Below, piece by piece: positions 30,618 through 62,089 of a stretch of 64,000 nucleotides of DNA. The DNA comes from an uncultured Chlamydiae bacterium (lineage in GTDB: Bacteria > Chlamydiota > Chlamydiia > Chlamydiales > JAJFMA01). Location: NCBI GenBank assembly GCA_963713615.1, contig CAVQMM010000001.1, positions 2,336,001-2,400,000 of the forward strand, given 5' to 3'. Position 1 is the first letter of the stretch. Each line of letters begins with the position of its first letter. Below the pieces are notes generated by a model. That model was not told where the DNA came from, searched no databases, and saw only the letters and a list, made by a program, of their open reading frames with translations. The translations under genes were made by a program, and so were the position numbers.

Positions 30618-30860
30618 TTAAAGCAAATCGGAATCTGGTTCTATATCGTTTAATCCAATTAAATCTTGGCTTATTTCAAATGCATCTGCCTGTTGCTTCA
30701 TTAGGGAAAGCGTGTCATGCAGTGCCATAAGGTAACCTAACTTGTAATCTACATCCCAAAAATTTAGACATTCATCTTTCTCAAGCTTTGCCTCTCTGGC
30801 CTTTTCTTTTAGCAATATAGCTAAGTCATATATGTAGTTTTTCATTACATTGTCGTTCAT
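30618..30860 (-). CDS. Putative immunity protein (80 aa)
   Basis: Small AT-rich acidic ORF 8 bp after an Rhs toxin tip; ATG 30860 preferred. Confidence 0.72.
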   Translation of the reverse strand: MNDNVMKNYIYDLAILLKEKAREAKLEKDECLNFWDVDYKLGYLMALHDTLSLMKQQADAFEISQDLIGLNDIEPDSDLL

Positions 30861-30868
30861 TGAATATA

Positions 30869-32690
30869 TTATTCCGTGTGGTCCACAATCTGCTTCAGAA
30901 TGTCTCTTTGTTCGGTTTGTCTTTTTATATCGGAAGGCCATTTTTTTTCAATAAGAGCCTGTTGTTGACGCGGATCTAGATCAGCCCAATCTTTGATATA
31001 ACTTGAGGGATTATCAATTTTACTTTGATGTTGAGATATTTGCTTTTCCAATTTTGCAATCCCTTTCCTAAGCTCCTCGATGGATCGTGAAACGTTGTTA
31101 TTCAAAAATCCAGCATGCCGCCCCCCTTCCTTGGCAATACGAAATGCCTCATTAATGACAGTCGCGTCCATGGAGTCTTTTCCTATAGACGTAGAAGTAA
31201 GCTGTTCAATTGGGTTAAAAAGACCTTTCGAATGAGCTATCGTTCTTGCCACAACGCCTTCAAGCTTGGTAGCAAGGGGTTTAATCAGGGTAACATTTTT
31301 TATTGCGGCATATCCAGCCCGCATCCCCTTCCACATCAGGTTCTCAGCGGCAGCAAAAGGTATCATGCATGTCGATAATTCTATCACCTCATGTTGTCCA
31401 TCAGAGCCCAAAGCATTCCATTGCCTGTTAATGGCCTCGTAATCCCTCGATATCACCGCCTCGGCAAATGCACGCCGATCTTCGTCTCTTTTTCGAGCCT
31501 CAGCACGTTGAAGTGCTCTATTCTCTCGAAATGATCGCCACGATCTATAAACGTTAGCACACCAACGCCCACAATTCCGAATTCCTTGCCCCATGCTTCG
31601 CACATTGTCTCTAGTTGAAAATCGTTCGCGCACGCTCCAAAGCCCCCAAGGATCAATGAGGGTTAATGGGCGGTTATGGACATAGGCATAGAGATTGGGT
31701 CCATCAGCGTAGCCCTGAGGGTCGGGAGTCAACCAACGCCCTAGATTACGGTCGTAGTCGCGTCGACCAAACTGAAATAGGTCCGTATGCGCATCTAAAC
31801 GCTTACTTGCAAAGAGCCAGGGATTGCCTACCAAGGATTGGTCTAAAGAAATGCCTTGATGGTCATAAAGAACGAATTTCACCAAAGGCAGTATAGCAAT
31901 ACCCTTCTACAACGTTGCCGGTTGTGCTGTCTATCAAGCAGCACACGTTGCCGCGATGATCGTGAATGGGTGCATAGATTTGCCCACGGAGTTCTAAAGC
32001 GATAGCAGCGCCAAGTTCGGCTCCTCGTCCGTGACCCAATACACGCAATTGATCGATATGCCCCTCACGAAGCATCCCAATCTCTTTTTGCCCTTGATAC
32101 AAGTAAGAGACCGTTTCAGATTCGTTCCACTCACCATTCCAGGTACAAAGGGTTCGCGTCAGGCGTCTGCCAAACGCATCATAGCTGTAACGAACTTGCC
32201 AAGCGTTTGGCTGCTCAGCAACAATCAGGCGATTTAAGGCATCATAGACATACTGGGTTGAGGCTTGCGGCGCATCCTTTCGGATGCGATTACCATTTAA
32301 GTCATATGCATAGCTGGTCATTGAATCCGATGTAATCTGGTTTAAGCCATTCACTGCATAGGGTTGCATGTCCTTTTGGAGGCGATTTTGCAGCGAATCA
32401 TAAGCATACGTATGCGTCAAAGGCCCATCTTCGCCGATTAACTGATAGAGGTCATCGTAGTGATAATTCTCAGTAATCGCCCCAAAAATGTCTTTCTTGT
32501 GAATACAACGCAGATTTCCTACGCCGTCGTACCCATCTGGAGGAATTTGTTGAGACCAAGCCTTGGTGATGATTTGAGTGTTACGTCCAAGAGCATCCCA
32601 CACGCGTTGCTGCTGACCTGCCAGCCCGATCAGCTGCGCAGCAAGTTCACGTCCAGCCAAATCGTAATTCAAGTACTGATGCTGATATGC
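30869..32690 (-). pseudogene. Orphan Rhs core fragment plus helical toxin tip
   Basis: Core nearly identical to 57400-58390; +1 frameshift near 31875; YAYVHNRPLTLIDPWG followed by a distinct C-terminus. Confidence 0.85.
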
Positions 32691-32837: not shown

Positions 32838-32964
32838 GGTCAGACGTGACTTATTGACTTCTCATCCGAAATTCAGCTCGATCTTTCATTCAAGGTCTCT
32901 AGTACAATGAACAAGTCAACAACTCACCTCTGACCCCTAGCAACAACTCACCTCTGACCCCTAG
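32838..32964. repeat. Palindromic element C with a tandemly duplicated 24-bp end
   Basis: Imperfect GGTCAGACGTGACTTATTGACTT...AAGTCAACAACTCACCTCTGACC hairpin; CAACAACTCACCTCTGACCCCTAG twice at 32917-32964. Confidence 0.7.
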
Positions 32965-33700
32965 CATCGTCCCTTGCTCAAAGGAGTGCCGATGTGTTTC
33001 CTGCGTTTGGTCGATACAATCCCTGATAGCACACTTTTCCTCGGATGGACATTCTGAATCCCATAGTCCTATATCGCAGAAGCAATCGCAGAAGCTATGA
33101 CAAACGGACAACCCAAAATCTGCTATACCGGCACATATCCCCTTACAAGCACTTGATGCACGGGAGTTTGAATAAGTGGACTCCCTTTGAACGTTATCAC
33201 CGCGTGATTCCCTGTTCTTTGAAGTGCTGGTCTTTCGCCCACTGTCCGCCGCTTTATTTCGGTCATACAAAGCACTGAGTCCCCAAAGATCCAAGAGGGT
33301 CAACGGATTATTGTGCACATAAGTATAGAGGTTAGGTCCGTCTGAAAAGCCCTGCGGATCGGGTGTTAGCCAGCGTCCTATCGAAGTATCGTAGTCGCGC
33401 TTGCCAAATTGGAATAACCCTGTATGCGAATCGAGGCGCTTACTAGCGAATAGCCATGGGTTAGCGATTGTTGAATGCGCTTGAGCAACATTGGCGGAAT
33501 CGTAAATTTTAAGTTCCCCAAATGCACTATAACGATAGCTTTCAACGGCAATGCCTGTTTCACTGTCCACAAGGCAGCAGACGTTTCCTCGATGGTCATG
33601 GATAGGCGCATATACTTTCTGATTTAGCTCTAATGCAATGGCAGCGCCGAGCTCGGCTCCCTTCCCACTTCCCAGCCTCTGAGCTGAATAATATGGTCAT
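32965..33700 (-). pseudogene. Truncated duplicate of the Rhs core end and linker
   Basis: Nearly identical to about 34713-35450; stops at EQGTM. Confidence 0.85.
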
Positions 33701-33831
33701 TTTATGTCATGATTAGCCACGACTTCGTGTAAACAATCTTATACGAGTATTGCTCTGCGTACAAGTTTGGACCGCACCCATTGAAGGTACAAAATTTGAC
33801 AATGAATACCGGTGCTAATAAGCGGCTCGAA

Positions 33832-34188
33832 TCAACACCCTACGTCTGACCCCTCGCCCCTCGCCCTTTGTAAGGACGAGTTGATGAGTTCCGGTTTATG
33901 AGCCATGATAAAACCAAATACTATTTTCTGAGCGAAAGGAATCATTTTTCGAAACTGACTTTCGAAAAACCGATTCAGACCAACAGATATTTCACCTATC
34001 GATTCCGCACAATTATCTATTATCAGGTCATCTTCATCAGGATTTGAAGCTACTTTTGTAAGAGCTTCTAAAGCTCGTAAATCCTTATATTCCCTAAGGT
34101 CAATAGCAGCATCGCTTCGTTCATCTTCTCTAGCCGATTTATCTAGTAAGATATCTATTAATAATTGAGTTCGATCTTTCATTTTCAC
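33832..34188 (-). CDS. Putative immunity protein (HEAT-like helical)
   Basis: 4-bp start/stop overlap with the toxin ORF; AT-rich; ER.DAA..L....D.RALEAL pattern. Confidence 0.72.
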   Translation of the reverse strand: MKMKDRTQLLIDILLDKSAREDERSDAAIDLREYKDLRALEALTKVASNPDEDDLIIDNCAESIGEISVGLNRFFESQFRKMIPFAQKIVFGFIMAHKPELINSSLQRARGEGSDVGC

Positions 34189-36779
34189 CTTGTATAGTCA
34201 AGTTCTAGAGGTAAATGAGAGCCAACCCGCCAATTTCCAATCTCTCCAGAAAACGGGTTTATATAACTTTGGCCCAACTTATCAGTTAACAACCTCGCAT
34301 CAAACCTTGGAATATTGCTTTCTTGATGAAGACCACTGCGAATACTAGCTTCAGGCTTTATGACAAGTCGCCATTCTAGTTTTCCGTCTACACAAACACC
34401 CCATTTTTCTGGTGCTCCTTGGGGATTTGGCAGTTTTTCCCATCCTTTGCTCTTGGCCCAGCCGCGTAGTATGCGAATATTGTTTTGGGCGGTGGGGGAA
34501 AGCTGGCTGGCATTGAAGTGAAAGCGGTTTAAAGTTACTGGCAACTTTGGTAACGCTGTAGAGACCCCTCTTATAGCGAATTTTCCAACAGACCAACCTA
34601 ACTTTGCTAAACCCCATCCACCCGATACTAGGGCTGCTGCCTCACAAGCCATTGTAGCACCATAGCGATAATTTTGATAAGTCATATCGGAGGGATCAAC
34701 ACCCAAGAAATTCATCGTCCCTTGCTCAAAGGATTGCCGATGTGTTTCCTGCGTTTGGTCGATACAATCCCTAATAGCACACTTTTCCTCGGATGGACAT
34801 TCTGAATCCCATAGTCCAACATTGCAGAAACAATCGCAGAAGCTATGACAAACGGACAACCCAAAATCTGCTATACCGGCACATATCCCCTTACAAGCAC
34901 TTGATGCACGGGAGTTTGAATAAGTGGACTCCCTTTGAACGTTATCACCGCGTGATTCCCTGTTCTTTGAAGTGCTGGTCTTTCGCCCACTGTCCGCCGC
35001 TTTATTTCGGTCATACAAAGCACTGAGTCCCCAAAGATCCAAGAGGGTCAATGGATTATTGTGCACATAAGCATAGAGGTTGGGTCCGTCTGAAAAGCCT
35101 TGTGGATCGGGTGTTAGCCAGCGTCCTATCGAAGTGTCGTAGTCGCGCTTGCCAAATTGGAACAACCCTGTATGTGAATCGAGACGCTTACTAGCGAATA
35201 GCCATGGGTTAGCGATTGTAGAGTACGCTTGAGCAACATTGGCGGAATCGTAAATTTTAAGTTCCCCAAATGCACTATAACGATAGCTTTCAACGGCAAT
35301 GCCTGTTTCACTGTCCACAAGGCAGCAGACGTTTCCTCTATGGTCATGAATAGGCGCATAGACTTTCTGATTTAGCTCTAATGCAATGGCAGCGCCGAGC
35401 TCGGCTCCTTTCCCATTTCCCAGTACTCTGAGCTGAATGATATGGCCATTCTCCATGGCTCCAATTTCCTTCTGGCCCTGATAGAGATAGGAAGTGGTTT
35501 GAGGGTCAGACCAGCCATTAATATTCCAGGTCGAAAGAGTGCGCGCTAAACGCCTTCCGAATGTGTCGTAGCTATAAGTTACCCGCCATTTCTGGCGTTG
35601 TTCTACGGAGGTCAAGCGGTTCAGTGCGTCATAGATATAGTGGGTCGTCGTGTCAGCTTCAGTTTTTCCTATCCGATTTCCATCCAGGTCATACTCATAG
35701 CGAGCTTCTGAACAGGAGAGTGTTTGATTTAATTCATTCACAGAATAGGGTTCAGCATCTTTTTGCCGTCTGTTTTGCAAGGAATCGTAAGCATAGGTGT
35801 GTGCTAAAGGTCCCTCTTCTGCAACTAGCTGGTAGAGATCGTCATAGTGATAATGTTCTTCTGCATGACCGAGAGGGTCTTTCTTGTAAATGTGGCTTAG
35901 GTTGCCTACAGGGTCAAAGCCATTCTCTGGAATATCTTGAGACCAGAAGGGGGTTTCTATTTTGGTATTGTGTCCTAACGCATCCCACTGCCTTGTCTGG
36001 TGACCAGCTTTCCCTATGAGCTGTGAGGCTAGTTCTCGTCCAACCAAATCATAATCCAAGTAGGCATGTTCGTAGAGCAGACGACCTTCAGGGTCGAACC
36101 GACTCACTTTGCTAAGCTCTAGACCATGGTAGGAATATTCAATGCTTCCTAAATCGGGCAGAGTCACGTGAGTGAGGCGTTCGAGATTATCATAGCGATA
36201 TCTAAAACATGTTTCGTTCGCCAATTTTTCAAAAATAAGATGGTTCCAAGCGTCATATTCACGCCTGGTAGATTTCTGTGAGCACAGGTCCGTGGTGGTA
36301 ATGGGATTATTGTGCAGGTCATAAGTATAGTGATAATCAATCGTTCCATCCGAAGAGGTTAGCGTGGCTAGACGACCTAGTGAGTCGTATTGGTGATGCA
36401 GGGTGATGCCATCGGGTTTTGTGAGGGTTTGCAGCCTACCCACGGAGTCGTAAGTATAGTTGGTGACTTTCGATAAAGCTCCTCCTTGCTCAGTCATTTT
36501 TAACGGACGCTGCATACTGTCATAACACCAGCTGATGATGTAGTCATGAGAGGGCTGTCCGAAGGTAATGACTTTTTCACGTTGGCGTACTTTCTCTCCA
36601 GTGGGGCTGTAGCAGACTTCTTGCAGAGCGGTCGTTAAGCCTTTGGTGATACTGGCTCCTGCAGTCGCGCCAGCACCATTACGGTCGTATAGGGTGGCCT
36701 CAAGCCCCCAGGGATCAAAGAGTGTTAAGGGTGAGTTGTGGACATAAGCATAGAGGTTTGGGCCATCCACAAAGCCCAT
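34185..36779 (-). CDS. Chimeric orphan Rhs core plus toxin tip
   Basis: YD repeats; two core-end motifs (DPWG at the start, DLWG later); distinct C-terminus; no N-terminal domain. Confidence 0.85.
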   Translation of the reverse strand: MGFVDGPNLYAYVHNSPLTLFDPWGLEATLYDRNGAGATAGASITKGLTTALQEVCYSPTGEKVRQREKVITFGQPSHDYIISWCYDSMQRPLKMTEQGGALSKVTNYTYDSVGRLQTLTKPDGITLHHQYDSLGRLATLTSSDGTIDYHYTYDLHNNPITTTDLCSQKSTRREYDAWNHLIFEKLANETCFRYRYDNLERLTHVTLPDLGSIEYSYHGLELSKVSRFDPEGRLLYEHAYLDYDLVGRELASQLIGKAGHQTRQWDALGHNTKIETPFWSQDIPENGFDPVGNLSHIYKKDPLGHAEEHYHYDDLYQLVAEEGPLAHTYAYDSLQNRRQKDAEPYSVNELNQTLSCSEARYEYDLDGNRIGKTEADTTTHYIYDALNRLTSVEQRQKWRVTYSYDTFGRRLARTLSTWNINGWSDPQTTSYLYQGQKEIGAMENGHIIQLRVLGNGKGAELGAAIALELNQKVYAPIHDHRGNVCCLVDSETGIAVESYRYSAFGELKIYDSANVAQAYSTIANPWLFASKRLDSHTGLFQFGKRDYDTSIGRWLTPDPQGFSDGPNLYAYVHNNPLTLLDLWGLSALYDRNKAADSGRKTSTSKNRESRGDNVQRESTYSNSRASSACKGICAGIADFGLSVCHSFCDCFCNVGLWDSECPSEEKCAIRDCIDQTQETHRQSFEQGTMNFLGVDPSDMTYQNYRYGATMACEAAALVSGGWGLAKLGWSVGKFAIRGVSTALPKLPVTLNRFHFNASQLSPTAQNNIRILRGWAKSKGWEKLPNPQGAPEKWGVCVDGKLEWRLVIKPEASIRSGLHQESNIPRFDARLLTDKLGQSYINPFSGEIGNWRVGSHLPLELDYTR

Positions 36780-37102: not shown

Positions 37103-37190
37103 GTAAGCGTCAATGCTAGCCATATTTCGGTCGTTGATGTAATCAGCTAATGTGCCTTCAAAGTTAGGTAACACTTTGGAGGTAGGTCTG

Positions 37191-37505
37191 ATGAAAGAGA
37201 GAGATAAAGTTCGTGCGGAGCAGTGGGCAAAAACAATCCAGGAGTGGACTAAAAGCGGAAAGAGCGCCTCCTCTTGGTGTCGAGAGCAAAGTCTTTCTTA
37301 TGCCACGTTCAATTATTGGAAAAAACGATTTTTAAGCAATCAGTCGAAAAATCAGCCTGTGCATAAACCATGTAAGGAGTTACCAGAGGGCTGGTCTATA
37401 CCCGATTGGCTGCAGATGAATTTTCGAGGAGGCAAACTATCTCTGGCAAAAGATTATGACCGCACAGCTCTTCTGATGTGTCTTAGACTGTTTGAGGAGT
37501 CTTGA
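37191..37505 (+). CDS. tnpA: IS66 accessory protein TnpA
   Basis: W..SGKS...WC......TF.YW; RBS GGAGG before ATG 37191. Confidence 0.85.
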   Translation: MKERDKVRAEQWAKTIQEWTKSGKSASSWCREQSLSYATFNYWKKRFLSNQSKNQPVHKPCKELPEGWSIPDWLQMNFRGGKLSLAKDYDRTALLMCLRLFEES

Positions 37506-37840
37506 TGCTGACTTATCCAGGGAATGCGCGAATCTTCATTTTTCGTGAGACAACCGATTTAAGAAAGGGTTTTGAAGGCCTCTGCGCCTTAGTTGAGAGA
37601 GCTTTCGGCAGTGATGAGCTGATTAGTGGCGCCTTCTTTTCCTTTCTTAACCGTCGAAGAGATCGCATTAAAATACTCTATTGGGATAGTGATGGTTTTG
37701 CCATCTGGTATAAACGTCTTGAGCGGGGAAGCTTCCCTAAGAGAAAATTGGAAGAGGCCTTAGTTGATCGAAGGACCTTTTTGATGATGTTGGAAGGCGT
37801 CGTTCCGAAACGACTGCAAAAGCGTTTCAAGATAGTGTGA
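37505..37840 (+). CDS. tnpB: IS66 accessory protein TnpB
   Basis: DLRKGFEGL, FLNRRRD and YWDSDGF..WYKRLE motifs; TGATG coupling to tnpA. Confidence 0.9.
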   Translation: MLTYPGNARIFIFRETTDLRKGFEGLCALVERAFGSDELISGAFFSFLNRRRDRIKILYWDSDGFAIWYKRLERGSFPKRKLEEALVDRRTFLMMLEGVVPKRLQKRFKIV

Positions 37841-37888
37841 AAATGCATTTTTTGCATTCACATAAATTCATATTTTGAGTACAATGAT

Positions 37889-39469
37889 GTGCATATGGCA
37901 CCTACAACACGTACTCTCCAAGATCTGATTGCCGAAAGCGCTCGTAAGGACAGCATAATCGAGCAGCTACAGAATGAGCTGACTTATCTCAAGGAGCAAT
38001 TGGATTGGCTAAAAAGGCAGGTTTTTGGACAACGTGCCGAAAAATTTGTAGACCCAGTCAACGAAAGTCAACCCTTCTTACCCGGTTTTGAACCACCTAA
38101 GAATGTGAAACCGGAAAAGAAAACAACCATTCCTGCTCATGAGCGCCGACAACTCAAGCGTACTGGTAAAGACAAAATCACACTGCCCCCAGACCTACCC
38201 GTAGAACGTCAAATAATCGATCTACCGGAATCTGAAAAGATCTGTCCTGAGACTGGTCAGCAACTGATCAAGATCGGTGAAGAAGTCAGTCAAAAACTGG
38301 CTCATAAGCCAGGAAGCTATTTTATCAAAGAAATCATCCGGCCAAAATATGCTCTTCCTCAAGACAGTGAAGGTGGAATCCGAACTGCTCCCCTTCCAGA
38401 AGGTTTGCTTACGCGTTGTCAAGCAGATGAGAGCTTTTTAGCAGACATTTTAACAAAGAAATTTGCCGACCATCTACCGCTCTATAGAATTTCAGAAATT
38501 CTTGCTAGGGAAGGAATTGGGATCAGCAGGCAAGTCCTTTGTAATTGGGTTGTACGCTGTGGACAGGCATTAAAACCTCTTCATGAGGAACTAACAAAGC
38601 AAATTTTGCAAAGCGGAAATGTGTTTATCGATGAAAGTCCTGTGGATATGCTTTCTCCGGGAAAGGGCAAAGTCCATCAAGCTTACATGTGGGTGTTGGT
38701 TGGGGGCAAACATACGAACCCAGCCTATAGAGTCTACAATTTTCGGACGAACCGCAAACATGAAAATGCCTCGGAAATACTTGCAGGGTATACCGGAGTG
38801 GTACATTCAGATAAATATGGGGCTTATATTGATCTGGCAAATAAGAAGAAAATCATTTTATGTCCCTGCTGGTCGCATATTCGCAGAAAATTCATAGAGG
38901 CGGAAACTGGAGATCCCCCATTTCGCAAATGGGTTTTACGAAAGATTCGCTACCTCTTTATGCTAGAAAGAATTGCTTGGGCACGCTCTGAAGAAGAGCG
39001 ATTACGCATACGGCAGCTGAAAGAGGGGCCGATTATAGACGAGCTAATCAACGCCATCAAAAAACGTCTATCCGAAGGAAAAGTCCTGCCTAAATCCAAA
39101 TTTCGAGAAGCTCTAGGGTATTTTTTAGGTCTGATTCCTCATCTAAAAAACTACTTAAACCATCCATACGCACGCCTAGATAACAATGTAGCCGAACGTG
39201 CAGTTCGTCCATTGGCAATTGGCCGCAAGAATTGGCTATTTATTGGCAATGAAGAAGGGGGCGAAGCCGCAGCGGTAATACTGTCTTTAGTTCAAACCTG
39301 CCGGAATCTGGGAATAAACCCTCGAGACTATCTTGAAGATGTCATGCGTAGACTAATGAGTCACAGCTCACAAAAACTTTACGAACTACTACCAGATCAA
39401 TGGGCTAAATCACAGCAGGACCCTTCTGGCAATTCTTTTGAGAATTTCAAATCGGCTGTATCCCACTAA
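37889..39469 (+). CDS. tnpC: IS66 transposase TnpC
   Basis: DHLPLYR, CWSHIRRKF, DNNVAERAVRP and C-terminal LLP motifs. Confidence 0.93.
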   Translation: MHMAPTTRTLQDLIAESARKDSIIEQLQNELTYLKEQLDWLKRQVFGQRAEKFVDPVNESQPFLPGFEPPKNVKPEKKTTIPAHERRQLKRTGKDKITLPPDLPVERQIIDLPESEKICPETGQQLIKIGEEVSQKLAHKPGSYFIKEIIRPKYALPQDSEGGIRTAPLPEGLLTRCQADESFLADILTKKFADHLPLYRISEILAREGIGISRQVLCNWVVRCGQALKPLHEELTKQILQSGNVFIDESPVDMLSPGKGKVHQAYMWVLVGGKHTNPAYRVYNFRTNRKHENASEILAGYTGVVHSDKYGAYIDLANKKKIILCPCWSHIRRKFIEAETGDPPFRKWVLRKIRYLFMLERIAWARSEEERLRIRQLKEGPIIDELINAIKKRLSEGKVLPKSKFREALGYFLGLIPHLKNYLNHPYARLDNNVAERAVRPLAIGRKNWLFIGNEEGGEAAAVILSLVQTCRNLGINPRDYLEDVMRRLMSHSSQKLYELLPDQWAKSQQDPSGNSFENFKSAVSH

Positions 39470-51912: not shown

Positions 51913-53790
51913 CGGAAGTTCACCCCTGTTTTTGAAAAAAACACCTACCTAAAGTGTTGATTTTTCGACTTTTAGAGGCCTTTTCTTGTCCTGTGTTTAG
52001 TGACTACATTACTTGTGGCCACCTGGATTTGCTTTGGCATGGTAATTTGTAGAGCGCTCAAAATGTTAGTGGCCTCCTTGGAGGGGGCAGGGATCATTTC
52101 AATGGTCACCGCATCTGAGCACTTTATTGAATTTTGACATATAAGGCCTAACACTCGCAGGGCCTCTTCTGCAGTCATATTTACTTCAGCTAACCTTGAA
52201 CGCAGCTCTCTTACAATCATATGAGCCAGCATAGTGATAAATATGTGCCCCTTGGTGCTCTCTACTGTTCTTACATAAATCGGCCTGATTTCCAAAAAAT
52301 TGCTCTTGAAGGTTCTGAAATCATCCTCAACGTATTTTAGGTCTTTGTATCGTTCGAAAATTTCTAGGTCAGAAGCTTCTTCCTTACCTAATTCCGTTGT
52401 CCATACGTAACAACCGTCAAACTTAGATTTTTCTTTTAGCCGCTCCTGGTCGATCTCTAAACGTAATTGCCTTTTTTCGACGGAAACACTGACCCACTCT
52501 GCAATGCATAGTTTTTTTAGATATTGTCGTATTCGATTCTTTGCCAACACCGCTGACATTGTAGGCTTAGACTCAAGTTTTTTGTTTTCTTGATCCACGC
52601 GCCTTTGAGCGGTAGATAGGCGTTCTTCTCTTTGTGATTGGGTTTCTAAAGCACGTCCAGGATTGCGCCGATAGATGTATCTCTTGCCTTCAAGACAAAT
52701 CGATTGAAGATCTTTCGTGAATGTATCCAGACAAAGAATCTCTGCGCCTATTAGCGATTTCATCTCAGGAAGAGTCAAGGCTGTGACATATCCAAACCCG
52801 TATTCCTTTAGCAATAGCTTCTGCTTGTTCCGAATCATTCCTCTATCACCAACTAGGACAACGTTCTTGCAGCCAAATCTGGCTTTAATTTTGTCTAACT
52901 GATTTTGAAAAGTCAGAGTGTCCTGGGTATTGCCTGCAAAGGCCTCGACGGAGACTGGCATTCCATTATTGATGCTTAACAGCCCTATAACGACCTGCTT
53001 CTTTCTTTTCTTCTTGTCGCGGTTGTGTCCATAGGCAGCCAAGGCATTTTGCGTGCCCTCAAAGTATGAGCTTGTTACATCGTACCAGTAAAATTGCCCA
53101 GAATAACGCCTAAGCCTGAAAAGCGAATTCTCAATGGAACTTTGATTTTTGGCTACCCAATGCAGGCTTTGATAAAAGTCATTTTCATCAAAACCTCGGT
53201 TGAGGTTGATTATGGAGGCAATATCATAGATTAGGACCAGTCTTGCCGCCGACAGGCGAGAGCCTTGCTCAAGAATCCTTGCGAAGACAAGCCAAAGGAT
53301 AAGTTTAGCGTGGAAACTATCACCTAGGGCTTTTGTGATCCCAAGACTGTCTGCCAATTGCTTTAGAACGAACACTCCTCCAACTGATCTGCCCTGAACA
53401 ATGCTAAAACTGTCCTTGGACAAGATTGTAGGATTGTCCTTATGTTTCAGACCTAGCCTAATAGCCTCAATATCACTCTTAGAACACCCTGAAAGATTAG
53501 CCAGTGTGCGGTTTTTAACCTTTGTGCCCTCTCTATATGATTCACGAAGCAAAATAGACTCGTAAACCTTTCCAGACTTAGACTTGGACGTTGATTTTGC
53601 AATGTACATACAGTTTCCATCATATAACTGGACTACATTATACGCATAATAAATATATCTACAATATATTTTAGATGATATTTGAATAATTATTTTAGTG
53701 ACTACATTTTTTCGGAAAAATAGTGATGCAAAGCATTTATATTCATCACAATACGATCAAAGTAGTGGGGAAATTAGGGGTGAACTTCCG
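51913..53790 (-). mobile_element. IS1634-family element, copy 3 (1878 bp)
   Basis: Perfect 15-bp terminal inverted repeat; flanked by the two outer arm stubs of element A. Confidence 0.95.
51972..53609 (-). CDS. IS1634-family DDE transposase
   Basis: Same protein as 28767-30404 except K/R near the C-terminus. Confidence 0.93.
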   Translation of the reverse strand: MYIAKSTSKSKSGKVYESILLRESYREGTKVKNRTLANLSGCSKSDIEAIRLGLKHKDNPTILSKDSFSIVQGRSVGGVFVLKQLADSLGITKALGDSFHAKLILWLVFARILEQGSRLSAARLVLIYDIASIINLNRGFDENDFYQSLHWVAKNQSSIENSLFRLRRYSGQFYWYDVTSSYFEGTQNALAAYGHNRDKKKRKKQVVIGLLSINNGMPVSVEAFAGNTQDTLTFQNQLDKIKARFGCKNVVLVGDRGMIRNKQKLLLKEYGFGYVTALTLPEMKSLIGAEILCLDTFTKDLQSICLEGKRYIYRRNPGRALETQSQREERLSTAQRRVDQENKKLESKPTMSAVLAKNRIRQYLKKLCIAEWVSVSVEKRQLRLEIDQERLKEKSKFDGCYVWTTELGKEEASDLEIFERYKDLKYVEDDFRTFKSNFLEIRPIYVRTVESTKGHIFITMLAHMIVRELRSRLAEVNMTAEEALRVLGLICQNSIKCSDAVTIEMIPAPSKEATNILSALQITMPKQIQVATSNVVTKHRTRKGL

Positions 53791-53903: not shown

Positions 53904-55030
53904 TCAATGAGCTGTCGTGCTTGCCACAACGCCTTCAAGCTTGGTAGCAAGGGGTTTTATCAAGGTAACATTTTTTATTGCGGCATATCCAGCCCGCATC
54001 CCCTTCCACATCAGGTTCTCAGCAGCAGCTAAAAAGGTATCATGAGGCATAGAGATTGGGTCCATCAGCGTAGCCCGAGGGTCGGGAGTCAACCAACGTC
54101 CTAGATTACGGTCGTAGTCGCGTCGACCAAACTGAAACAGGTCCGTATGCGGATCTACACGCTTACTTGCAAAGAGCCAGGGATTGCCTACCAAGGATTG
54201 GTCTAAGGAAATGCCTTGATGGTCATAAAGACTGAATTCACCAACGGACTTGCCAGGCGTTTGGCTGCTCAGCAACAACCAGGCGATTTAAGCCATCATA
54301 GACACACTGGGTTGAGGCTTGCGGCGCATCCTTTCGGATGCGATTACCATTCAAATCATATGCATAGCTCGTGATTGAATCCGATGTAATCTGGTTTAAG
54401 CCATTCACTGCATAGGGTTGCATGTCCTTTTGAAGGCGATTTTGCAGCGAATCATAAGCATACGTATGCGTCAAAGGTCCATCTTCACCGATTAGCTGAT
54501 AGAGGTCATCGTAGTGATAATTCTCAGTAATCGCCCCAAAAATGTCTTTCTTGTGAATACAACGCAGATTTCCTACGCCGTCGTACCCATCTGGAGGAAT
54601 TTGTTGAGACCAAGCTTTGGTGATGATTTGAGTGTTACGTCCAAGAGCATCCCACACGCGTTGCTGCTGACCTGCCAACCCGATCAGCTGCGCAGCAAGT
54701 TCACGTCCAGCCAAATCGTAATTCAAATAATGATGCTGATATTGAGAGTTCCCCTGAGTATCGTGTCGATCAATGGTACGGATTTCAAGGCCATTCTAGG
54801 CATATTCAATGCCCGAATGGTGAGGAAGCGTCACACTTATCACACGCCCTAACGAATCGTAGGCATAGTGAAAGATCATGCCATTCGCCAATTGATCACT
54901 CACCATACGGTTCCAGGGATCGTACTGACGCCTGGTGGTGAGTTGGGTTGTTAGATCCGTCGTTTCAATCGGGTTGCCATGCAGGTCATAAACATAGCGA
55001 TACGCAAGGGTATTGTCTGAGGAGGTTAGG
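53904..55030 (-). pseudogene. Decayed Rhs core and partial toxin linker
   Basis: Matches the Rhs A core with internal deletions; AAAENLMWKGMRAGY segment shared with the 30869 cassette. Confidence 0.82.
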
Positions 55031-55172
55031 GTCCCTTGACTCCCGGTGCAGTCGCTGGATCAATGCGTAGTCGCTCTAAAAATTTCGCCAAAACCAAACC
55101 GTAGGTTCGCTGCTACCTGGGTGAACATTTACATCGAATAGCCCTTTTGATGTCTCTTAGACTTTTGAGAAG

Positions 55173-55553
55173 TTACTCTGAACCCTTATCTTCGATCATA
55201 AAATCAAAAGCATATATTTTAATAACGCTACCGGTGGAATTGGTAATTATTTGGTAGCATTTGATTCCATCAAGATCAATGGTCATTTTTAACCATTTAG
55301 CCTTAAGAGCGTCAAGTTCATCAGATGCAGTAATGCACTCAGCTGCTAAAATGCACTCACACGTATGGATACCGAAGTTCATATGCGCGGTTAACCCATA
55401 ACATTTACCAAATTCGATGAATGAAGAAGGTCCATCGTCAGGCCAATCAATCACAAATCTAACCGTGTCGTTGTCACCTGGCCTTGATCTATCTATAGAC
55501 AGAGATTTCAGTATGGCATCATGCCAAGGTAAACTATTGAAATCATATTTCAT
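55173..55553 (-). CDS. Putative immunity protein (126 aa)
   Basis: ATGA overlap with a hidden toxin-tip frame; F.SL.WHDA N-terminus; AT-rich. Confidence 0.75.
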   Translation of the reverse strand: MKYDFNSLPWHDAILKSLSIDRSRPGDNDTVRFVIDWPDDGPSSFIEFGKCYGLTAHMNFGIHTCECILAAECITASDELDALKAKWLKMTIDLDGIKCYQIITNSTGSVIKIYAFDFMIEDKGSE

Positions 55554-55806
55554 TCGACAAATCCTGGATCTAATTCGCCCATACGAGGACTGTAGTGTAC
55601 CCGTTTTCCATTTAGATGATAATGAGAATAATTTGGTCCTTTCAGCCCTGGAGCCGTCGCCGGATCGATTCTTAACTTTTCAATAAATATTCCGTCTACT
55701 TTTACGCCATAGCACCCCGCTCTAAACTGGTTTTCAATATAGTTTTTAGGGATATCATACTTTCCCCAGGAGGCAATGCAACGCCCTGAGGAGTCACATG
55801 AACTAC
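55550..55806 (-). pseudogene. Toxin tip absent from the ORF track
   Basis: Manual translation: VVHVTPQGVALPPG, frameshift, then KYDIPKNYIENQFRAGCYG..LRIDPATAPGLKGPNYSHYHLNGKRVHYSP..GFVE*. Confidence 0.7.
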
Positions 55807-56343
55807 CTAATGGTGATGATAGACAGTTCTGTTCCCGCTTGGTTCAGCAGAGCTGGTGCTGCTGCTGCCACTTCGATCAGAATCTTCTCTGCTTGCGGAC
55901 CTACAACCGACACTAGCTCTTGCATGCACTCCAGCCCTATCGCGGTCGTATAAGTTAGCCTTCAGCCCCCAAAGGTCCAAAAACATCAGAGGGCTGTTGT
56001 GGACATAGGCATAGAGATTAGGCCCATCAGCGTAGCCTTGAGGGTCGGGAGTCAACCAACGCCCTAGATTACGGTCGTAGTCGCGTCGACCAAACTGAAA
56101 TAGGTCCGTATGCGAATCTAAACGCTTACTTGCAAAGAGCCAGGGATTGCCAACCAAGGATTGGTCTAAAGAAGCGCCTTGATGGTCATAAAGACTGAAT
56201 TCATCAAAGGCAGTATAGCGATACCCTTCTACAACGTTGCCGGTTGTACTGTCTATCAAACAGCAAACGTTGCCGCGATGGTCGTGGATGGGTGCATAGA
56301 CACGCCCACCGAGTTCTAAAGCGATAGCAGCTTTTAATTCCAT
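55807..56343 (-). pseudogene. Orphan Rhs core end
   Basis: Nearly identical to 57195-57715 up to TVYHHH, then a stop codon. Confidence 0.82.
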
Positions 56344-56591
56344 TCCTTCTGGAGCCTGAGCTCTACAAACAATTTCGGAATTTCTAACGCTTCTCCATTA
56401 CTGAACTCAACTAAATATAGTATGGATTGCATTGGTTGATCAAAAGCTTCGGATACTTGTGCAGATTCAATATTGCGAATACCACAAATACAGCCAATCT
56501 GACCGGGTTTGTAACGCTTAGGAGCATTGTGTCTAACCAGTATCGTATCTCCCCAACTAAGAATAGGATCTAGTGATTTATCGAAAGCCAT
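56334..56591 (-). CDS. Putative immunity protein for Rhs A (85 aa)
   Basis: Overlaps the Rhs A stop by 22 bp; AT-rich. Confidence 0.72.
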   Translation of the reverse strand: MAFDKSLDPILSWGDTILVRHNAPKRYKPGQIGCICGIRNIESAQVSEAFDQPMQSILYLVEFSNGEALEIPKLFVELRLQKEWN

Positions 56592-59500
56592 GGTGTGCCA
56601 TCTGGGTTAATGATTCCTGGAACGTGAGCATGTGGTTGCAGCGAACGCCGGTCAATATGACCCGGAGGACTATGACGACCATCTTTCCGCAAACCTGTTG
56701 GATTGCCTATATGGTCCCTGACTTGTACCCATTTACCATCCGGCGAGCCCGTTAAGTGTTCTCCCACTCTTACCGGTATAGTATTTCCGTTAGAATCCAC
56801 AATCATTACATCTATGGTGACGTTGCCGTTAAAGGGATTGGTGTTAGTTTGTGTTCCATTCCTGATAGGAATACCCGCCACGGATTCTGTTCTTTCGGCA
56901 ACTTGCCCACATTCTATCGAATTGCGGAAAACAGTTCTAGGAGAGTCAACCTTTGGAGTTTGTTGGATAGTTCTAAGGGCGATCCCCGTGGTTACTCGAA
57001 CCGGTGCAGCTACAAGGCGAAGAGCCGGAAAAGCCAACGCCGCCGAACACATTATGTTTGAGCTTTCATTCAGGCATTCTAGACAAAATGTCATCCTCTC
57101 ATACTCATCCCACTGACTCCAACTACTTTTAAAGCCCCGATAGCTCCACACAGCATCGCTGACCCAACTCGTTCCATAGTCTGGCGAGTTGGAATGGTGA
57201 TGATAGACAGTTCTGTTCCCGCTTGGTCCAGCAGAGCTGGTGCTGCTGCTGCCGCTTCGATCAGAATCTTCTCTGCTTGCGGACCTACAACCGACACTAG
57301 CTCTTGCATGCACTCCAGCCCTATTGCGGTCGTATAAGTTAGCCTTAAGCCCCCAGAGGTCCAAAAACATCAGGGGGCTGTTGTGGACATAGGCATAGAG
57401 ATTAGGCCCATCAGCGTAGCCTTGAGGGTCGGGAGTCAACCAACGCCCTAGATTACGGTCGTAGTCGCGTCGACCAAACTGAAATAGGTCCGTATGCGCA
57501 TCTAAACGCTTACTTGCAAAGAGCCAGGGATTGCCTACCAAGGATTGGTCTAAAGAAATGCCTTGATGGTCATAAAGAATGAATTCACCAAAGGCAGTAT
57601 AGCGATACCCTTCTACAACGTTGCCGGTTGTGCTGTCTATCAAGCAGCACACGTTGCCGCGATGATCGTGAATGGGTGCATAGATTTGCCCACGGAGTTC
57701 TAAAGCGATAGCGGCGCCTAGTTCCGCTCCTTGTCCGTGACCCAATACACGCAATTGATCGATATGCCCCTCACGAAGCATGCCAATCTCTTTTTGCCCT
57801 TGATACAAGTAAGAGACCGTTTCAGATTCGTTCCACTCACCATTCCAGGTACAAAGGGTTCGCGTCAGGCGTCTGCCAAACGCATCATAGCTGTAACGAA
57901 CTTGCCAAGCGTTTGGCTGCTCAGCAACAACCAGGCGATTTAAGGCATCATAGACATACTGGGTTGAGGCTTGCGGCGCATCCTTTCGGATGCGATTACC
58001 ATTTAAGTCATATGCATAGCTGGTCATTGAATCCGATGTAATCTGGTTTAAGCCATTCACTGCATAGGGTTGCATGTCCTTTTGAAGGCGATTTTGCAGC
58101 GAATCATAAGCATACGTATGCGTCAAAGGTCCATCTTCACCGATTAGCTGATAGAGGTCATCGTAGTGATAATTCTCAGTAATCGCTCCAAAAATGTCTT
58201 TCTTGTGAATACAACGCAGATTTCCCACGCCGTCGTATCCATCTGGAGGAATTTGTTGAGACCAAGCCTTGGTGATGATTTGAGTGTTACGTCCAAGAGC
58301 ATCCCACACGCGTTGCTGCTGACCTGCCGACCCGATCAGCTGCGCAGCAAGTTCACGTCCAGCCAAATCGTAATTCAAATAATGATGCTGATATTGAGAG
58401 TTCCCCTGAGTATCGTGTCGATCAATGGTACGGATTTCAAGGCCATTGTAGGTATATTCAATGCTCGAATGGTCAGGCAGAGACATGTTTGTTAGACGGC
58501 CTAATGAATCATAGGCATAGTGACAGATCATGCCATTCGCCAATTGATCGCTCACCATACGGTTCCAGGGATCGTACTGACGCCTGGTGGTGAGTTGGGT
58601 TGTTAGATCCGTCGTTTCAATCGGGTTGCCATGCAGGTCATAAACATAGCGATACGCAAGAGTATTGTCTGAGGAGGTGAGGGTCGCAAGTCGTCCTAGG
58701 GCATCGTAGGTGTGGTGCAAGGTAACCCCATCGGGCTTGGTGAGCTCTGAAAGGCGTCCATAGACATCGTAGGCATAGCTCGTGGCTTTGAAGAGCGCAT
58801 CGCCCTGCTCAAGCATTGTTAGGGGACGCTGCATGCTGTCGTATTCCCAGCTCACGATGTAGTCTCGGGAGGGCGTACCAAAGGTAATCACTTTCTCGCG
58901 CTGGCGGATTTTCTGCCCAACAGAATCATAACAGACTTCTTGTAAGGCTGTGGTAAGGCCTTTGACATTGCGTCTTTCGACACAGGCGACACGATGCAGA
59001 GCATCATAGGTCTCCACAGTCATGTTACCCAAAGGATCCGTGGTGGTTTTTTGCAGAACTTTCTGATTGTGTGCATTGCGATATTCATAATTATAGGCAA
59101 TCTGGGTGATGTTGCCTAAGGCATCAATCTGCTGGATGGGCATGCCATGCGAGTCATAGAGTGTTTGTGTGGTACTGCAAACATTCTCCGAAGAATAAAC
59201 GTGTGTTTGTGTTCGGTTGCCAAGTCGATCAAAGAGGTGGGTTTCTTTACGAAGGATTTTTCCTGAGGAGTCTTCAATGCGTGTCTCAATGACCCTATCG
59301 AGAAAATCGTATTCCTGGATTTGCGCGATGTAGTCAGGCTCGGCACTTCCAAAATACTGCCGAGTAGTCCTCAATCTTCCCAGAGAATCATAGGCGAAGG
59401 TGGATAGGCTAAATGCTCCCGTGCCCTCCTTGCGTTCATTTATTTTGCGTCCAGCGAAGTCGTACTCAAAGGTGGTGGAATAACCCAGAGCGTCAGTTTC

Positions 59501-62089
59501 CCTCGTGGGATGGGCTCCCGTATATTCCTTTTCAAGCGAGTATTGCAGAATACCCAGGCTGTCATAGGTATCGGTGCGAATCAGGCGACTAAACCCATCG
59601 TAGGTATAGTGATGACACAGTCCCTCTTTCTCCCATTTTTTTGCTAGGACTCCGTTGAGGTGATACTGACAGCGTTCTTGGGTTCCATCGGGATAGGTGA
59701 TGCAAACGGGCTGCCCCCGTACATTGTAGGAGGTGGTTGTTTTGTGCCCCTTTTGATCAATGACTGCTGTGAGCTGGTCAAGGACATTGTACTCCTTTCG
59801 AACCCAAGAGGGCTGGTATCCCTGTCCTAGTGTTGCACAGGGAGGATACTGGACCTCGATTTCTCTTCCAAACTCATCATATTTGAAGTGGGTTGTTGTC
59901 CCAGTGCCATCGGCATGTTCTGAACCGATGGAATTGTAGGACTCCACCTGAGCTATCCTGTTGCCCACAAGGTCATAGCAATATTCTGTGATAAAGCAGG
60001 GGCCATCATCATGTTTCTCGACCCGCTTAATGAGACGATCCATCAAATCGTATGAGAAGAGCGTATGGAATCCAGAACCCTCTAGCTTTTCACGGATTTT
60101 GTTCTTGTTTTCGTCATAGGCCATGGTGGTGGTTTGACCCAGAGCATCGGTCTGACGGATGAGATTGCGTTTGTTGTCATAGTCGAACGCTAGTGTGTAG
60201 CAAAACTGGTCGTTGGCATCGTAGAGGTCTTGGCGAATCAAGAGCTCGCTAGCGTTGTAAATGTTTTCAATGCGTCTCAGTTGTTTTTGTTCACCCGTGG
60301 TCAAGTCGAGGTAGCTTTCGATGGTTGTTTGCGGAAAACCCACGGCTGGAGCAGTAAGACGGGGCACGATCGTAGTGATTTTACGACAGGTAACATCAGT
60401 GAGATCCTCTTGGTGCGTGCCTGAGCCATCATCGGTGATCATTTCAATGAGCAGGTGATTGGAGTCATAAGAGCGAAATTCTCTCTGGTACCATTTTTGA
60501 TGGTCTCCAAGGAGTTTGGAGGTCAGCAGGTTTGTTTCGGGTAGGTAGGCCATGGCGATGACCTTGCCATCGCTGCATTCTTCACGCACAGGAAGATTGA
60601 AGCGATCATTGGAGTAGGACATTATTCGACTGAAGCATTCGACGGGTCGATCAGGACGATGGTCCGCCCTAAGTTCAAAGCTGGCATCGTTATTGCCAGA
60701 GAGATTGCCGTAAAAGTCTTCGCTGATGAGGTTGTTGCGATCATCGTATGCTCCTACAGTGATATATAGACAGGGATTTCTAGGAACAGGGATGAATAGG
60801 CCTTTGGCGAGTAGATTTCCTAAATTTACCCCCTCCTTGCACCAGTAATAACGCATGGTGGAGTAGTACTGATTGTGCCTCGTGAATTTATCGATCGCCA
60901 CGATCCGTTTTTCGGGTGATCTAGCGTAGGCGGTACGAATGCCATGGGCATCGTAGACGTCTGTATACGTATCCTTGTACTCAAACCTTGCTAGGGTGAT
61001 CCGTTTTTTCCTCTTAGGACCCTGGGGATAAGGAATCTGTAGATCGGACACCTTGCCATCTCCGTGGTAATTGATGTAAAGGTGATGATTCTCTGGCTTT
61101 TCGAGTTTTCGTAATTTGCAATAATACTCTGCTTCCGAATCGCTCGTCTTGTACTGATAGGTTAACGTCACTGGCGGTCCATTAGAGGGGATGATTTGCC
61201 GAATGAATGGGCAAGGTCCTCTTTCCCCCTTCTTCTTGTTCTTGCAGTAGATCGCTTCGATGACATAAGAAGTGGATAGGCCATTACTCGCTGTTACTTT
61301 AAAGCCATTGTCAACTTTGTCAACTTTGAGGGTATTGAAGGTTAGGTCGCCGTTCGCGTTGGTGCTTCGTATCTCAGTCAGGAGATTTCCAGAATCGTAC
61401 TCGAAATACCGCTGATGACCATTGGGCTGCGATTCATGCTTCAAGTACCACGAGCTATGGTAGTGGGTATCGTGTGATAGCCAAGAGTAGGTTCGGTGGG
61501 CTCCTGAGCCAAATGACATCTCACATTGACCGAGATTGCAGCATTTAGACGTGTTGAGGCGTGGGCTGAGTCCTGTGAAATGTAGCTTGATGTTCTTAAC
61601 GGTATCAGCGCCACAAATACCCCCGCCGGCATAATTGGTTTGACCATGTTTGGTGTAAATGGCTTCATCGACAGTCGCTAAAACCGCATCGCCGCCCAAT
61701 GACACGCCAAGGTACTTTGTAGCGGACCCTTCTCGCTCTTCTAAGAACACTTCATAAGGTCTATCTTTGATTCCTGAAGCGGATAGTCCACTCAGTTTGA
61801 GTGGAAAATCCATGCCGAAGCCATATCCATGAGGACTATGTGTGATATACTTACTCCTAGAAGAGCTGTCATAGCAATGTGAATAAAGCAGTGCGTTAGG
61901 ACCTTCTGTAGCTACCGTTGTATCGGAGAGAAAAAACTCACCTGTAATGACGTTTACACAGTCGTATACCGTGGCTAGGGGCAGCGCATCAGGGCCTAAG
62001 CGCATCTCCAAAGGTGGTTTTTCCTGAGAATATGTCGTTACAGAGCATGCCAAAAGGGCAATAAGTAGTAGACGAAGGATACGAAACAT
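56570..62089 (-). CDS. Full-length Rhs/YD-repeat polymorphic toxin A with signal peptide
   Basis: RBS GGAGG; MFRILRLLLIALLAC leader; many YD repeats; GRWLTPDP.G..DGPNLYAYVHNSP...DLWG; variable tip. Confidence 0.93.
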   Translation of the reverse strand: MFRILRLLLIALLACSVTTYSQEKPPLEMRLGPDALPLATVYDCVNVITGEFFLSDTTVATEGPNALLYSHCYDSSSRSKYITHSPHGYGFGMDFPLKLSGLSASGIKDRPYEVFLEEREGSATKYLGVSLGGDAVLATVDEAIYTKHGQTNYAGGGICGADTVKNIKLHFTGLSPRLNTSKCCNLGQCEMSFGSGAHRTYSWLSHDTHYHSSWYLKHESQPNGHQRYFEYDSGNLLTEIRSTNANGDLTFNTLKVDKVDNGFKVTASNGLSTSYVIEAIYCKNKKKGERGPCPFIRQIIPSNGPPVTLTYQYKTSDSEAEYYCKLRKLEKPENHHLYINYHGDGKVSDLQIPYPQGPKRKKRITLARFEYKDTYTDVYDAHGIRTAYARSPEKRIVAIDKFTRHNQYYSTMRYYWCKEGVNLGNLLAKGLFIPVPRNPCLYITVGAYDDRNNLISEDFYGNLSGNNDASFELRADHRPDRPVECFSRIMSYSNDRFNLPVREECSDGKVIAMAYLPETNLLTSKLLGDHQKWYQREFRSYDSNHLLIEMITDDGSGTHQEDLTDVTCRKITTIVPRLTAPAVGFPQTTIESYLDLTTGEQKQLRRIENIYNASELLIRQDLYDANDQFCYTLAFDYDNKRNLIRQTDALGQTTTMAYDENKNKIREKLEGSGFHTLFSYDLMDRLIKRVEKHDDGPCFITEYCYDLVGNRIAQVESYNSIGSEHADGTGTTTHFKYDEFGREIEVQYPPCATLGQGYQPSWVRKEYNVLDQLTAVIDQKGHKTTTSYNVRGQPVCITYPDGTQERCQYHLNGVLAKKWEKEGLCHHYTYDGFSRLIRTDTYDSLGILQYSLEKEYTGAHPTRETDALGYSTTFEYDFAGRKINERKEGTGAFSLSTFAYDSLGRLRTTRQYFGSAEPDYIAQIQEYDFLDRVIETRIEDSSGKILRKETHLFDRLGNRTQTHVYSSENVCSTTQTLYDSHGMPIQQIDALGNITQIAYNYEYRNAHNQKVLQKTTTDPLGNMTVETYDALHRVACVERRNVKGLTTALQEVCYDSVGQKIRQREKVITFGTPSRDYIVSWEYDSMQRPLTMLEQGDALFKATSYAYDVYGRLSELTKPDGVTLHHTYDALGRLATLTSSDNTLAYRYVYDLHGNPIETTDLTTQLTTRRQYDPWNRMVSDQLANGMICHYAYDSLGRLTNMSLPDHSSIEYTYNGLEIRTIDRHDTQGNSQYQHHYLNYDLAGRELAAQLIGSAGQQQRVWDALGRNTQIITKAWSQQIPPDGYDGVGNLRCIHKKDIFGAITENYHYDDLYQLIGEDGPLTHTYAYDSLQNRLQKDMQPYAVNGLNQITSDSMTSYAYDLNGNRIRKDAPQASTQYVYDALNRLVVAEQPNAWQVRYSYDAFGRRLTRTLCTWNGEWNESETVSYLYQGQKEIGMLREGHIDQLRVLGHGQGAELGAAIALELRGQIYAPIHDHRGNVCCLIDSTTGNVVEGYRYTAFGEFILYDHQGISLDQSLVGNPWLFASKRLDAHTDLFQFGRRDYDRNLGRWLTPDPQGYADGPNLYAYVHNSPLMFLDLWGLKANLYDRNRAGVHARASVGCRSASREDSDRSGSSSTSSAGPSGNRTVYHHHSNSPDYGTSWVSDAVWSYRGFKSSWSQWDEYERMTFCLECLNESSNIMCSAALAFPALRLVAAPVRVTTGIALRTIQQTPKVDSPRTVFRNSIECGQVAERTESVAGIPIRNGTQTNTNPFNGNVTIDVMIVDSNGNTIPVRVGEHLTGSPDGKWVQVRDHIGNPTGLRKDGRHSPPGHIDRRSLQPHAHVPGIINPDGTPWLSINH

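Follow-up and report, generated by a model that had tools for sequence, protein, structure and literature searches.

The stretch of DNA considered here, referred to as the window, comprises 64,000 nucleotides from an uncultured Chlamydiae bacterium (GenBank assembly GCA_963713615.1, contig CAVQMM010000001.1, positions 2,336,001 to 2,400,000), and between its positions 30,618 and 62,089 it carries an array of Rhs genes and gene fragments that end in variable toxin tips, each followed by a small open reading frame (ORF) as the candidate immunity gene. The five tip ends (56570, 55550, 43877, 34185 and 30869, belonging to tips 1 to 5 in that order) all lie on the minus strand, and the tip-to-partner gaps of -22, -4, -8, -4 and +8 nt bear out the tight coupling described when the sequence was first read (hereafter, the original prediction). 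The +8 gap of tip 5 corresponds to the ATG start at 30860, the same ATG at which the alignment of a Simkania homolog begins. The partners had been called AT-rich, and their GC content is indeed 0.35-0.39, compared with 0.466 +/- 0.043 for the 1,117 small ORFs of the genome, 5.1% of which are equally low. The claim of five tip/immunity pairs stands insofar as a partner gene follows all five tips; however, the 55550 tip is a broken remnant and not an ORF, being a deleted, frameshifted paralog of the tip at C1:2418476 (C1 is the main contig of the source genome, G000), and only its partner gene is intact. Similarly, the tips are unrelated in that neither the toxin domains nor the partners show mutual BLAST similarity at E<0.05, with an intact paralog substituted for the broken 55550 tip, but their N-terminal halves form shared families. 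The only intact full-length Rhs gene in the window is 62089-56570 (1,839 aa). The segment 44636-50620 duplicates 57305-63294 at 89.6%, and the array extends about 36 kb past the window, to about C1:2,436,000, and there includes a further five tip ORFs linked to cores, of which one is truncated. This layout is ordinary for Rhs.

Table 1. Features of the Rhs array (positions in the window)
Feature	Position	Strand	Remarks
Predicted Sec signal peptide of signal peptidase I type, aa 1-21 of intact Rhs	62027..62089	-	Basic n-region, hydrophobic h-region; hydrophobicity heuristic
Rhs/YD shell, aa 22-1581	57347..62026	-	Weak DUF6531 start, YD repeats, Rhs core with D1554, D1577 and DLWGL cleavage motif
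Tip 1, 258 aa	56570..57346	-	Shared N-half with hydrophobic helix; behind it a putative nuclease domain of ~95 aa in which R, D and three H are invariant
Predicted immunity protein of tip 1, 85 aa, without signal peptide	56334..56591	-	Conserved couple, complex model
Orphan module 2: core end and broken tip (internal deletion, frameshift)	55550..56349	-	
Module 2 predicted immunity gene, 126 aa, intact	55173..55553	-	44% identity to gene behind homologous tip of a Leptospira plasmid Rhs
Rhs core fragments without intact tip	53904..55074	-	
Insertion sequence (IS) element with DDE transposase	51913..53790	-	Presumably IS1634-like; second copy at 28586-30463 closes the array
Rhs N-terminal fragment and hexapeptide-repeat acetyltransferase, in-frame fusion	49620..51878	-	Within duplicated unit
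Shorter copy of Rhs-fragment/acetyltransferase fusion	62294..63574	-	Upstream of intact Rhs
Second full-size Rhs, identical leader, tip 3 (266 aa)	43877..49415	-	Frameshift near 48,670
Predicted immunity protein of tip 3, 174 aa	43360..43884	-	
Two IS66 elements, one inserted at the other's end	37103..42857	.	Split orphan core (43340-42909, resumes at 37107)
Orphan module 4: ~580 aa core and tip 4 (279 aa)	34185..36779	-	
Predicted HEAT-repeat-like immunity protein of tip 4	33832..34188	-	Weak HEAT_2 match
Module 4 duplicate, truncated to the core end and the N-half of the tip	32899..33701	-	
Orphan module 5, a core fragment carrying an intact tip 5 of 256 aa with helical toxin domain	30869..32687	-	Frameshift near 31,875
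Predicted immunity protein of tip 5, 80 aa	30618..30860	-	

The intact Rhs protein begins MFRILRLLLIALLACSVTTYS-QEK, and the Sec-like leader ascribed to it is present by the hydrophobicity heuristic used here for all leader and signal-peptide calls; a like leader occurs in 102 of 114 homologs, i.e. those homologs of the N-terminal 480 aa, among 150 matches listed, that start with Met and the conserved start motif. The suggestion that LLAC (residues 12-15) may be a lipobox fared less well, since a lipobox-like string is found in 4 of the 114 homologs, two of which are this genome's own protein, and the leader looks, from sequence, to be of the signal peptidase I (SPase-I) type and not that of a lipoprotein. 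The 40 stretches from relatives contain 44 long Rhs frames, and these agree on the leader wherever their N-terminus is intact. Among ten clusters that were looked up, the three with an organism name are all chlamydial; a scan of named genomes with the Rhs N-terminus gave zero matches. The AlphaFold 2 model of aa 22-1200 (62 rows) is a near-continuous beta-meander (predicted local distance difference test score, pLDDT, 88.5; predicted template modelling score, pTM, 0.82), in which strands start about 30 residues past the leader and whose best structural matches are T6SS (type VI secretion system) Rhs cores, at E ~1e-42 and TM 0.3-0.5. The core, a TIGR03696 match over cut-off, ends in the motif PLMFLDLWGL and has aspartates D1554 and D1577, and no PAAR or VgrG-binding domain was found in the intact protein. 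The leader start, the meander model and the core motif therefore point to a design of leader, shell and tip, with neither spike adaptor nor anchor. In four DNA sequencing runs, taken from peat and soil in three studies, contigs span parts of the shell but scarcely reach the tip region, at low depth; there were no RNA runs among the sequencing runs listed. A relative, G023, has longer YD proteins of 2,500-3,285 aa with a different N-terminus (region of G023:C1:2208938), which apparently represent another Rhs class.

The toxin/immunity logic that had been proposed for the array is supported, at the level of sequences and models, by the recurrence of all five couples elsewhere, by a modelled complex of tip 1 with its partner, and by the occurrence of tip domains on other toxin carriers. 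Tip 1, a putative nuclease, has a match in 18 of the 351 genomes searched, and in 16 of the 17 other genomes a partner homolog lies beside the tip homolog. Its domain also occurs in 33 longer proteins, mainly Rhs and HINT carriers, and its model (pLDDT 84.9) contains five residues, R68, D70, H73, H87 and H89, that are kept in 38/38 rows. Members of the tip 1 family do not match the Ntox Pfam families (0/38), bar one WTIP hit; in the comparison with the Atlas, Ntox24 falls on 12% of a cluster at 0.85; and Foldseek returned no match for tip 1 at E<=0.001, which is not evidence of a new fold. Scanning metagenomes for tip 1 turned up a single weak locus. Complex modelling covered one of the five window couples, that of tip 1, for which the score was 0.83, compared with 0.01 for the best control; the mark set for this score is passed by 116 of 157 solved pairs and by 2 of 215 mismatched pairs. 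Across runs, at least 67% of contacts were in common, with a partner pLDDT of at least 78, and the modelled interface covers R68, D70, H73 and H89. The model thus supports binding of tip 1 by its partner.

The remaining couples recur in a range of replicons. That of module 2 is found on a Leptospira plasmid; that of tip 3 on Protochlamydia plasmid pPNK and in G023; and that of tip 5 on Simkania plasmid pSn, where the gene behind the tip homolog is 42% identical to the tip 5 partner. In Leptospira, the neighbour of a tip 3 homolog has no BLAST match to the tip 3 partner, and the neighbour of a tip 5 homolog has no match to the tip 5 partner; plasmid searches with tips 1 and 4 gave no match. The tip 5 domain is present in 31 longer proteins (one being tip 5's own), among them LXG, pre-toxin TG, PAAR, VgrG/GPD, SitA5 and RHS carriers. 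The tip 4 couple occurs in G001, and G000 itself has 11 more near-full paralogs of its toxin domain and 11 partner paralogs. Within this G000 family the toxin domains are 65-79% identical and the partners 37-68%; arrays of these paralogs with HEAT-like partners, which diverge faster than the toxin domains, lie at G000:C1:385000-399000 and 3071000-3086000, and offer ready material for testing cross-immunity. The tips are also built in two parts, as one N-half family is common to five G000 tips bearing four different toxin-domain families, and this sharing therefore suggests an entry domain and a second point at which tips may be swapped.

Judged by sequence comparison, the window locus is one expanded case of an order-wide class, the commonest sampled form of which pairs a hydrolase tip with an exported partner. 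The class table holds 64 intact tips, 23 from G000 and 41 from the 40 stretches of relatives, which were picked off the top of the Rhs-core search; 57 of the 64 have an adjacent partner, and none lies beside the other seven. Partners with a heuristic signal-peptide call accompany 25/26 hydrolase-type tips (those with conserved HSxG, Asp and His, 16 of which seeded the profile) vs 3/31 other tips, whose partners are mostly cytoplasmic (28/31); two of the three exceptions are HEAT-family partners and probably false calls, and the Fisher significance of the split is overstated because the rows are kin. Partner location that appears to track tip chemistry in this way is the pattern expected of antibacterial pairs. 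On a quick tree of the shell, tip class switches at least 5 times on strongly supported branches. A single-query search matched 93 of 201 genomes of the phylum and 0/24 in a genus of 1.0-1.2 Mb genomes, likely Chlamydia.

The exported partners of the hydrolase tips form one family, which is present in 104 of 120 genomes, often in tandem, is dominated by Chlamydiota in the Atlas, and has no Pfam or PDB match. Against PDB sequences, the hydrolase tips matched lipases/hydrolases weakly at most (best E 0.012), and chance hits to flavodoxin and mannosidase ranked higher. Eight of the 31 hydrolase-tip members match DUF687, with a best E of 4e-16. DUF687 is described in PMC11878206 as a chlamydial alpha/beta hydrolase that is catalytically dead and carries a membrane bundle, and the domain is reported in putative Inc proteins (PMC3048545). 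Hydrolase tips that match DUF687 and are, by sequence, catalytically intact are found at L136:2590-3468 and in L137, L139 and L140 (alignment A5). A possible origin of the DUF687 family in such tips is suggested by these matches.

The bacterium itself had been taken for a probable chlamydia, and its full-length SctV, 67-69% identical to named Chlamydiae metagenome-assembled genomes and about 50% or less identical to other full-length matches, among the 80 of 600 candidates listed, upholds that assignment. Further chlamydial markers are 12 nucleotide-transporter matches, DUF562 in the window and a sub-threshold OmcB-like match. The only SctV gene of G000 is on a small contig of 16.8 kb, C2 (C2:13417-15456), off the main contig. 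At 3.97 Mb and 99.1% completeness, G000 contains 31 Rhs cores, with eight intact leader-bearing Rhs genes. The lack of PAAR, VgrG and Hcp genes first seen in the window extends to this whole genome: searches for TssC, GPD/VgrG, PAAR, Hcp and phage sheath gave 0 matches in G000 while recovering their positive controls, so that the T6SS independence of the original prediction is supported at genome scale. Among the order's 61 genomes, G000 included, Rhs core is found in 53, TssC in 1, PAAR in 2 and GspE in 59, and GPD exceeds the cut-off in 0/61, with 1 weak match. A strong TssC match at G052:C4:120816-121751 and PAAR genes in G034:C47 and G019:C186, all rare among chlamydial genomes, possibly reflect acquired T6SS or contractile systems, or contamination.

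The original prediction left the delivery route unknown, and a type II secretion system (T2SS) gene cluster in the genome narrows that route to a candidate, albeit an unproven one. One of the two secretins of G000 is clustered with GspE and with ORFs that, from their motifs, we take to be GspF and pseudopilins. The prerequisites of a T2SS substrate, a Sec signal and a T2SS in the genome, are both present, these being necessary and not sufficient. The other secretin, of 2,758 aa and with a very long low-complexity N-terminal extension (G000:C1:3335524-3343800), is probably SctC of the type III secretion system. An intact Rhs begins 1.4 kb downstream of it, and this proximity was rejected as a clue to delivery, as no such neighbour appears in the stretches of relatives that were read. 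The search for ShlB/CdiB-type transporters recovered no control.

With a probability of about 0.68, the locus is an Rhs polymorphic-toxin array of an environmental chlamydia, likely Sec-exported and T6SS-free, with predicted caging and self-cleavage, whose products would poison rival bacteria while the downstream genes protect the producer. The rivals are probably other chlamydiae or co-resident bacteria; interbacterial killing itself is what we infer from these features. In the proposed mechanism, SPase-I would cleave after residue 21, the shell of ~1,560 aa is predicted to fold in the periplasm, and self-cleavage would occur after L1581 by means of D1554/D1577. Passage of the outer membrane would be most readily ascribed to the chlamydial T2SS, at a little less than even odds, with release by vesicles or lysis given somewhat under one chance in three and something else about one in four. 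The N-half of the tip, with its hydrophobic helix, may then serve as the entry domain into the target cytoplasm, where the last ~100 aa would act as a nuclease; the partner is predicted to cover the active site of the tip, protection being located at the tip's site of action. Tips would be exchanged through duplication and recombination, both at the core and behind the hydrophobic helix, and the orphans would chiefly supply immunity and spare tips. The partner at 55173, intact beside a broken tip, favours this antibacterial reading, and cytoplasmic partners point to an incoming toxin, since a chain exported by Sec would not be expected to fold while in the cytoplasm of the producer.

Several points weigh on the other side. 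Pfam, NCBIfam and PHROG place no window tip or partner over cut-off, and tip 1 can be called a nuclease by inference only, because its nearest fold, that of PT7, described as a DNase in 10.1101/2021.10.19.465003, matches weakly (Z 4.2, root-mean-square deviation 3.7, 63 aligned). The split in partner location comes from a hydrophobicity heuristic applied to kin rows from 40 hand-picked stretches, and the switching from a quick tree. GspE does not discriminate, because it is present in Rhs-less genomes as well, and no conserved transport gene was seen beside the Rhs genes among the relatives' stretches read. What the cytoplasmic partners protect against could be orphan tips produced from internal starts, and not neighbours, and a free 170-kDa shell would still have to find a way into a bacterial cytoplasm across inclusion membranes. 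Finally, PMC7143554 reports 19 proteins from the cytosolic fraction of infected cells, one being Waddlia Rhs11 (200 kDa, signal peptide), and Waddlia toxins have been read as host-directed (PMC3482391, section 46).

The host cell offers the strongest alternative target: Rhs proteins would be released into the inclusion or host cytosol, with hydrolase tips acting on membranes and nucleases on host nucleic acid, and the partners would protect the producer during synthesis and export. Besides Rhs11, the match of hydrolase tips to a domain of putative Inc proteins (PMC3048545) and the report that some polymorphic toxins kill bacteria and yeast alike (10.1101/2021.10.19.465003) suit such effectors, and a Sec-exported lipase requires a periplasmic inhibitor whatever its target. 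This explanation is nevertheless unlikely, as rivalry between bacteria would suit the fast tip turnover, the orphan immunity and the sharing of tips with LXG, PAAR and SitA carriers, a target in the bacterial cytoplasm would suit the cytoplasmic partners, and the small-genome genus has no matches; moreover, the Waddlia cytosol proteomics also yielded ribosomal proteins and chaperones. Less probable again is a decaying or selfish island, in which IS-riddled repeats are kept by toxin/antitoxin-like addiction, or as an immunity collection, with little active export. The state of the window, where 1/5 tips is on an intact full-length gene and the array and its borders hold four IS elements and several frameshifts, and the related arrays on Protochlamydia, Simkania and Leptospira plasmids would be explained by decay, whereas the eight intact leader-bearing Rhs genes of G000, full-size leader-bearing genes across the order and the invariant catalytic residues of the tips would not. 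A lipoprotein toxin on the outer membrane, passed on by membrane contact in the manner of myxobacterial SitA, is very improbable, as the LLAC string that hints at it is seldom found in homologs and the alignment of the nearest relatives places cleavage after residue ~21.

Returning to the antibacterial reading, a more ambitious version can be put forward tentatively, at odds well short of even: an ancestral, order-wide Sec-leader Rhs weapon would be delivered through the T2SS against bacteria in the same protist host, with a periplasm-acting lipase and an exported inhibitor as its default load; several lineages would independently have reloaded it with cytoplasmic nucleases and an entry domain of their own; and the small-genome pathogenic genus would have lost the shell and kept the dead lipase tip as DUF687 Inc-like proteins.

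Among known systems, the T6SS Rhs effectors (RhsA, 7Q97; Tse5, 8CP6; Salmonella/Advenella Rhs, 8QJA-D; Tse15, 8UY4) share with the chlamydial protein a YD beta-shell that opens with a DUF6531-like part, a pair of core aspartates (with a spacing of 23 here and of 22 in Tse15, according to its PDB title), and a variable tip with downstream immunity and orphan modules, as outlined in PMC3150448. They differ in that the chlamydial gene and genome are without PAAR, VgrG, Hcp and TssC, the Sec leader is followed almost at once by the shell, whose ~1,560 aa compare with ~1,020-1,080 resolved residues in most solved cores (~500 longer), and the tips are two-part and 250-300 aa in length. In Bacillus WapA/WapI, a YD protein is exported by Sec, bears a variable nuclease tip, is countered by immunity in the cytoplasm, and uses no T6SS; WapA crosses a single membrane and has wall-binding repeats, whereas the chlamydial Rhs also faces an outer membrane and shows no anchor domain in its model. 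The tips of CdiA (CdiA-CT) consist of an entry half and a toxin half, and Tle/Tli combine a lipase with exported immunity. The chlamydial tips are two-part as in CdiA/CdiI, and the hydrolase tips with exported partners resemble Tle/Tli; unlike CdiA, the chlamydial Rhs has no filamentous haemagglutinin stalk. Bacterial teneurin-like proteins (PMC13018210; 9IFO) are also similar, having a signal peptide, a YD shell, a polymorphic toxic C-terminus, immunity and no obvious delivery machine, and Sec-signal YD-shell toxins with immunity have been demonstrated among them. In the text available, however, they are defined by an FN-plug, NHL and YD shell, the Gram-negative ones are predicted lipoproteins, and the six phyla named include none that is chlamydial. 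The secondary structure of the chlamydial Rhs gives no sign of a propeller or FN domain, and the protein has no NHL/FN Pfam match and a continuous meander model; 9IFO ranks 23rd for it (TM 0.32).

Also close are the Rhs proteins of Waddlia chondrophila (the D6YTT8 pair, PMC3150448; rhs9, PMC4989314; Rhs11, PMC7143554), which are chlamydial, ~200 kDa and predicted to have a signal peptide. One Waddlia rhs/small-ORF pair was proposed as toxin/immunity in the paper that established orphan modules (PMC3150448), Euo binds the rhs9 promoter (PMC4989314), and an Rhs cluster appears among predicted outer-membrane proteins (PMC2811131). As far as the accessible portions of these accounts go, they are single mentions, without an order-wide class, a hydrolase/exported-partner default or tip switching. 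Chlamydial Rhs and one Waddlia rhs/immunity pair are therefore already in print, and the literature searched, which included few subscription journals, held no description of an order-wide, Sec-exported, immunity-paired chlamydial Rhs class; Additional File 1 of PMC3482391 may list some of the pairs.

Other features accompany the array. Fused in frame to an Rhs N-terminal fragment, a hexapeptide-repeat acetyltransferase of 211 aa lies ahead of each of the five full-size copies (one partial) of this Rhs subfamily, at window 62294-63574 and 49620-51878 and at C1:2426707, 2436029 and 3070925, and no other copies of the acetyltransferase were found in the genome at E<1e-8. It may travel with the duplication unit as a passenger, or may modify target or surface. 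A strongly self-complementary dispersed repeat of ~200 bp (window 28386-28585 and 63740-64000) has ~79 genome sites and resembles miniature inverted-repeat transposable elements or repetitive extragenic palindromic elements. The DUF562 chlamydia-specific protein adjoins the locus (window 26641-28146), with an imperfect 170-bp palindrome nearby (window 26239-26408).

What is notable about the class is its leader-on-shell design without T6SS, its order-wide spread, and an immunity that appears matched to compartment in obligate intracellular bacteria. In PMC3482391, chlamydiae appear under many toxin domains, yet Waddlia is credited with hardly any immunity proteins, and the view taken there (section 46) was that chlamydiae, having hardly any immunity genes, do not fight bacteria. 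Here, nearly every intact tip has a coupled partner, and predicted partner location matches tip chemistry across many families. Amoeba-dwelling chlamydial symbionts inhibit co-infecting bacteria by a mechanism given as unknown, with polymorphic toxins raised as an option (PMC6520448). If the antibacterial reading is true, the class would be a concrete candidate for that inhibition, as well as a diderm example of Rhs delivery without T6SS. The locus class also offers several unnamed predicted toxin/immunity families and a possible origin for DUF687.

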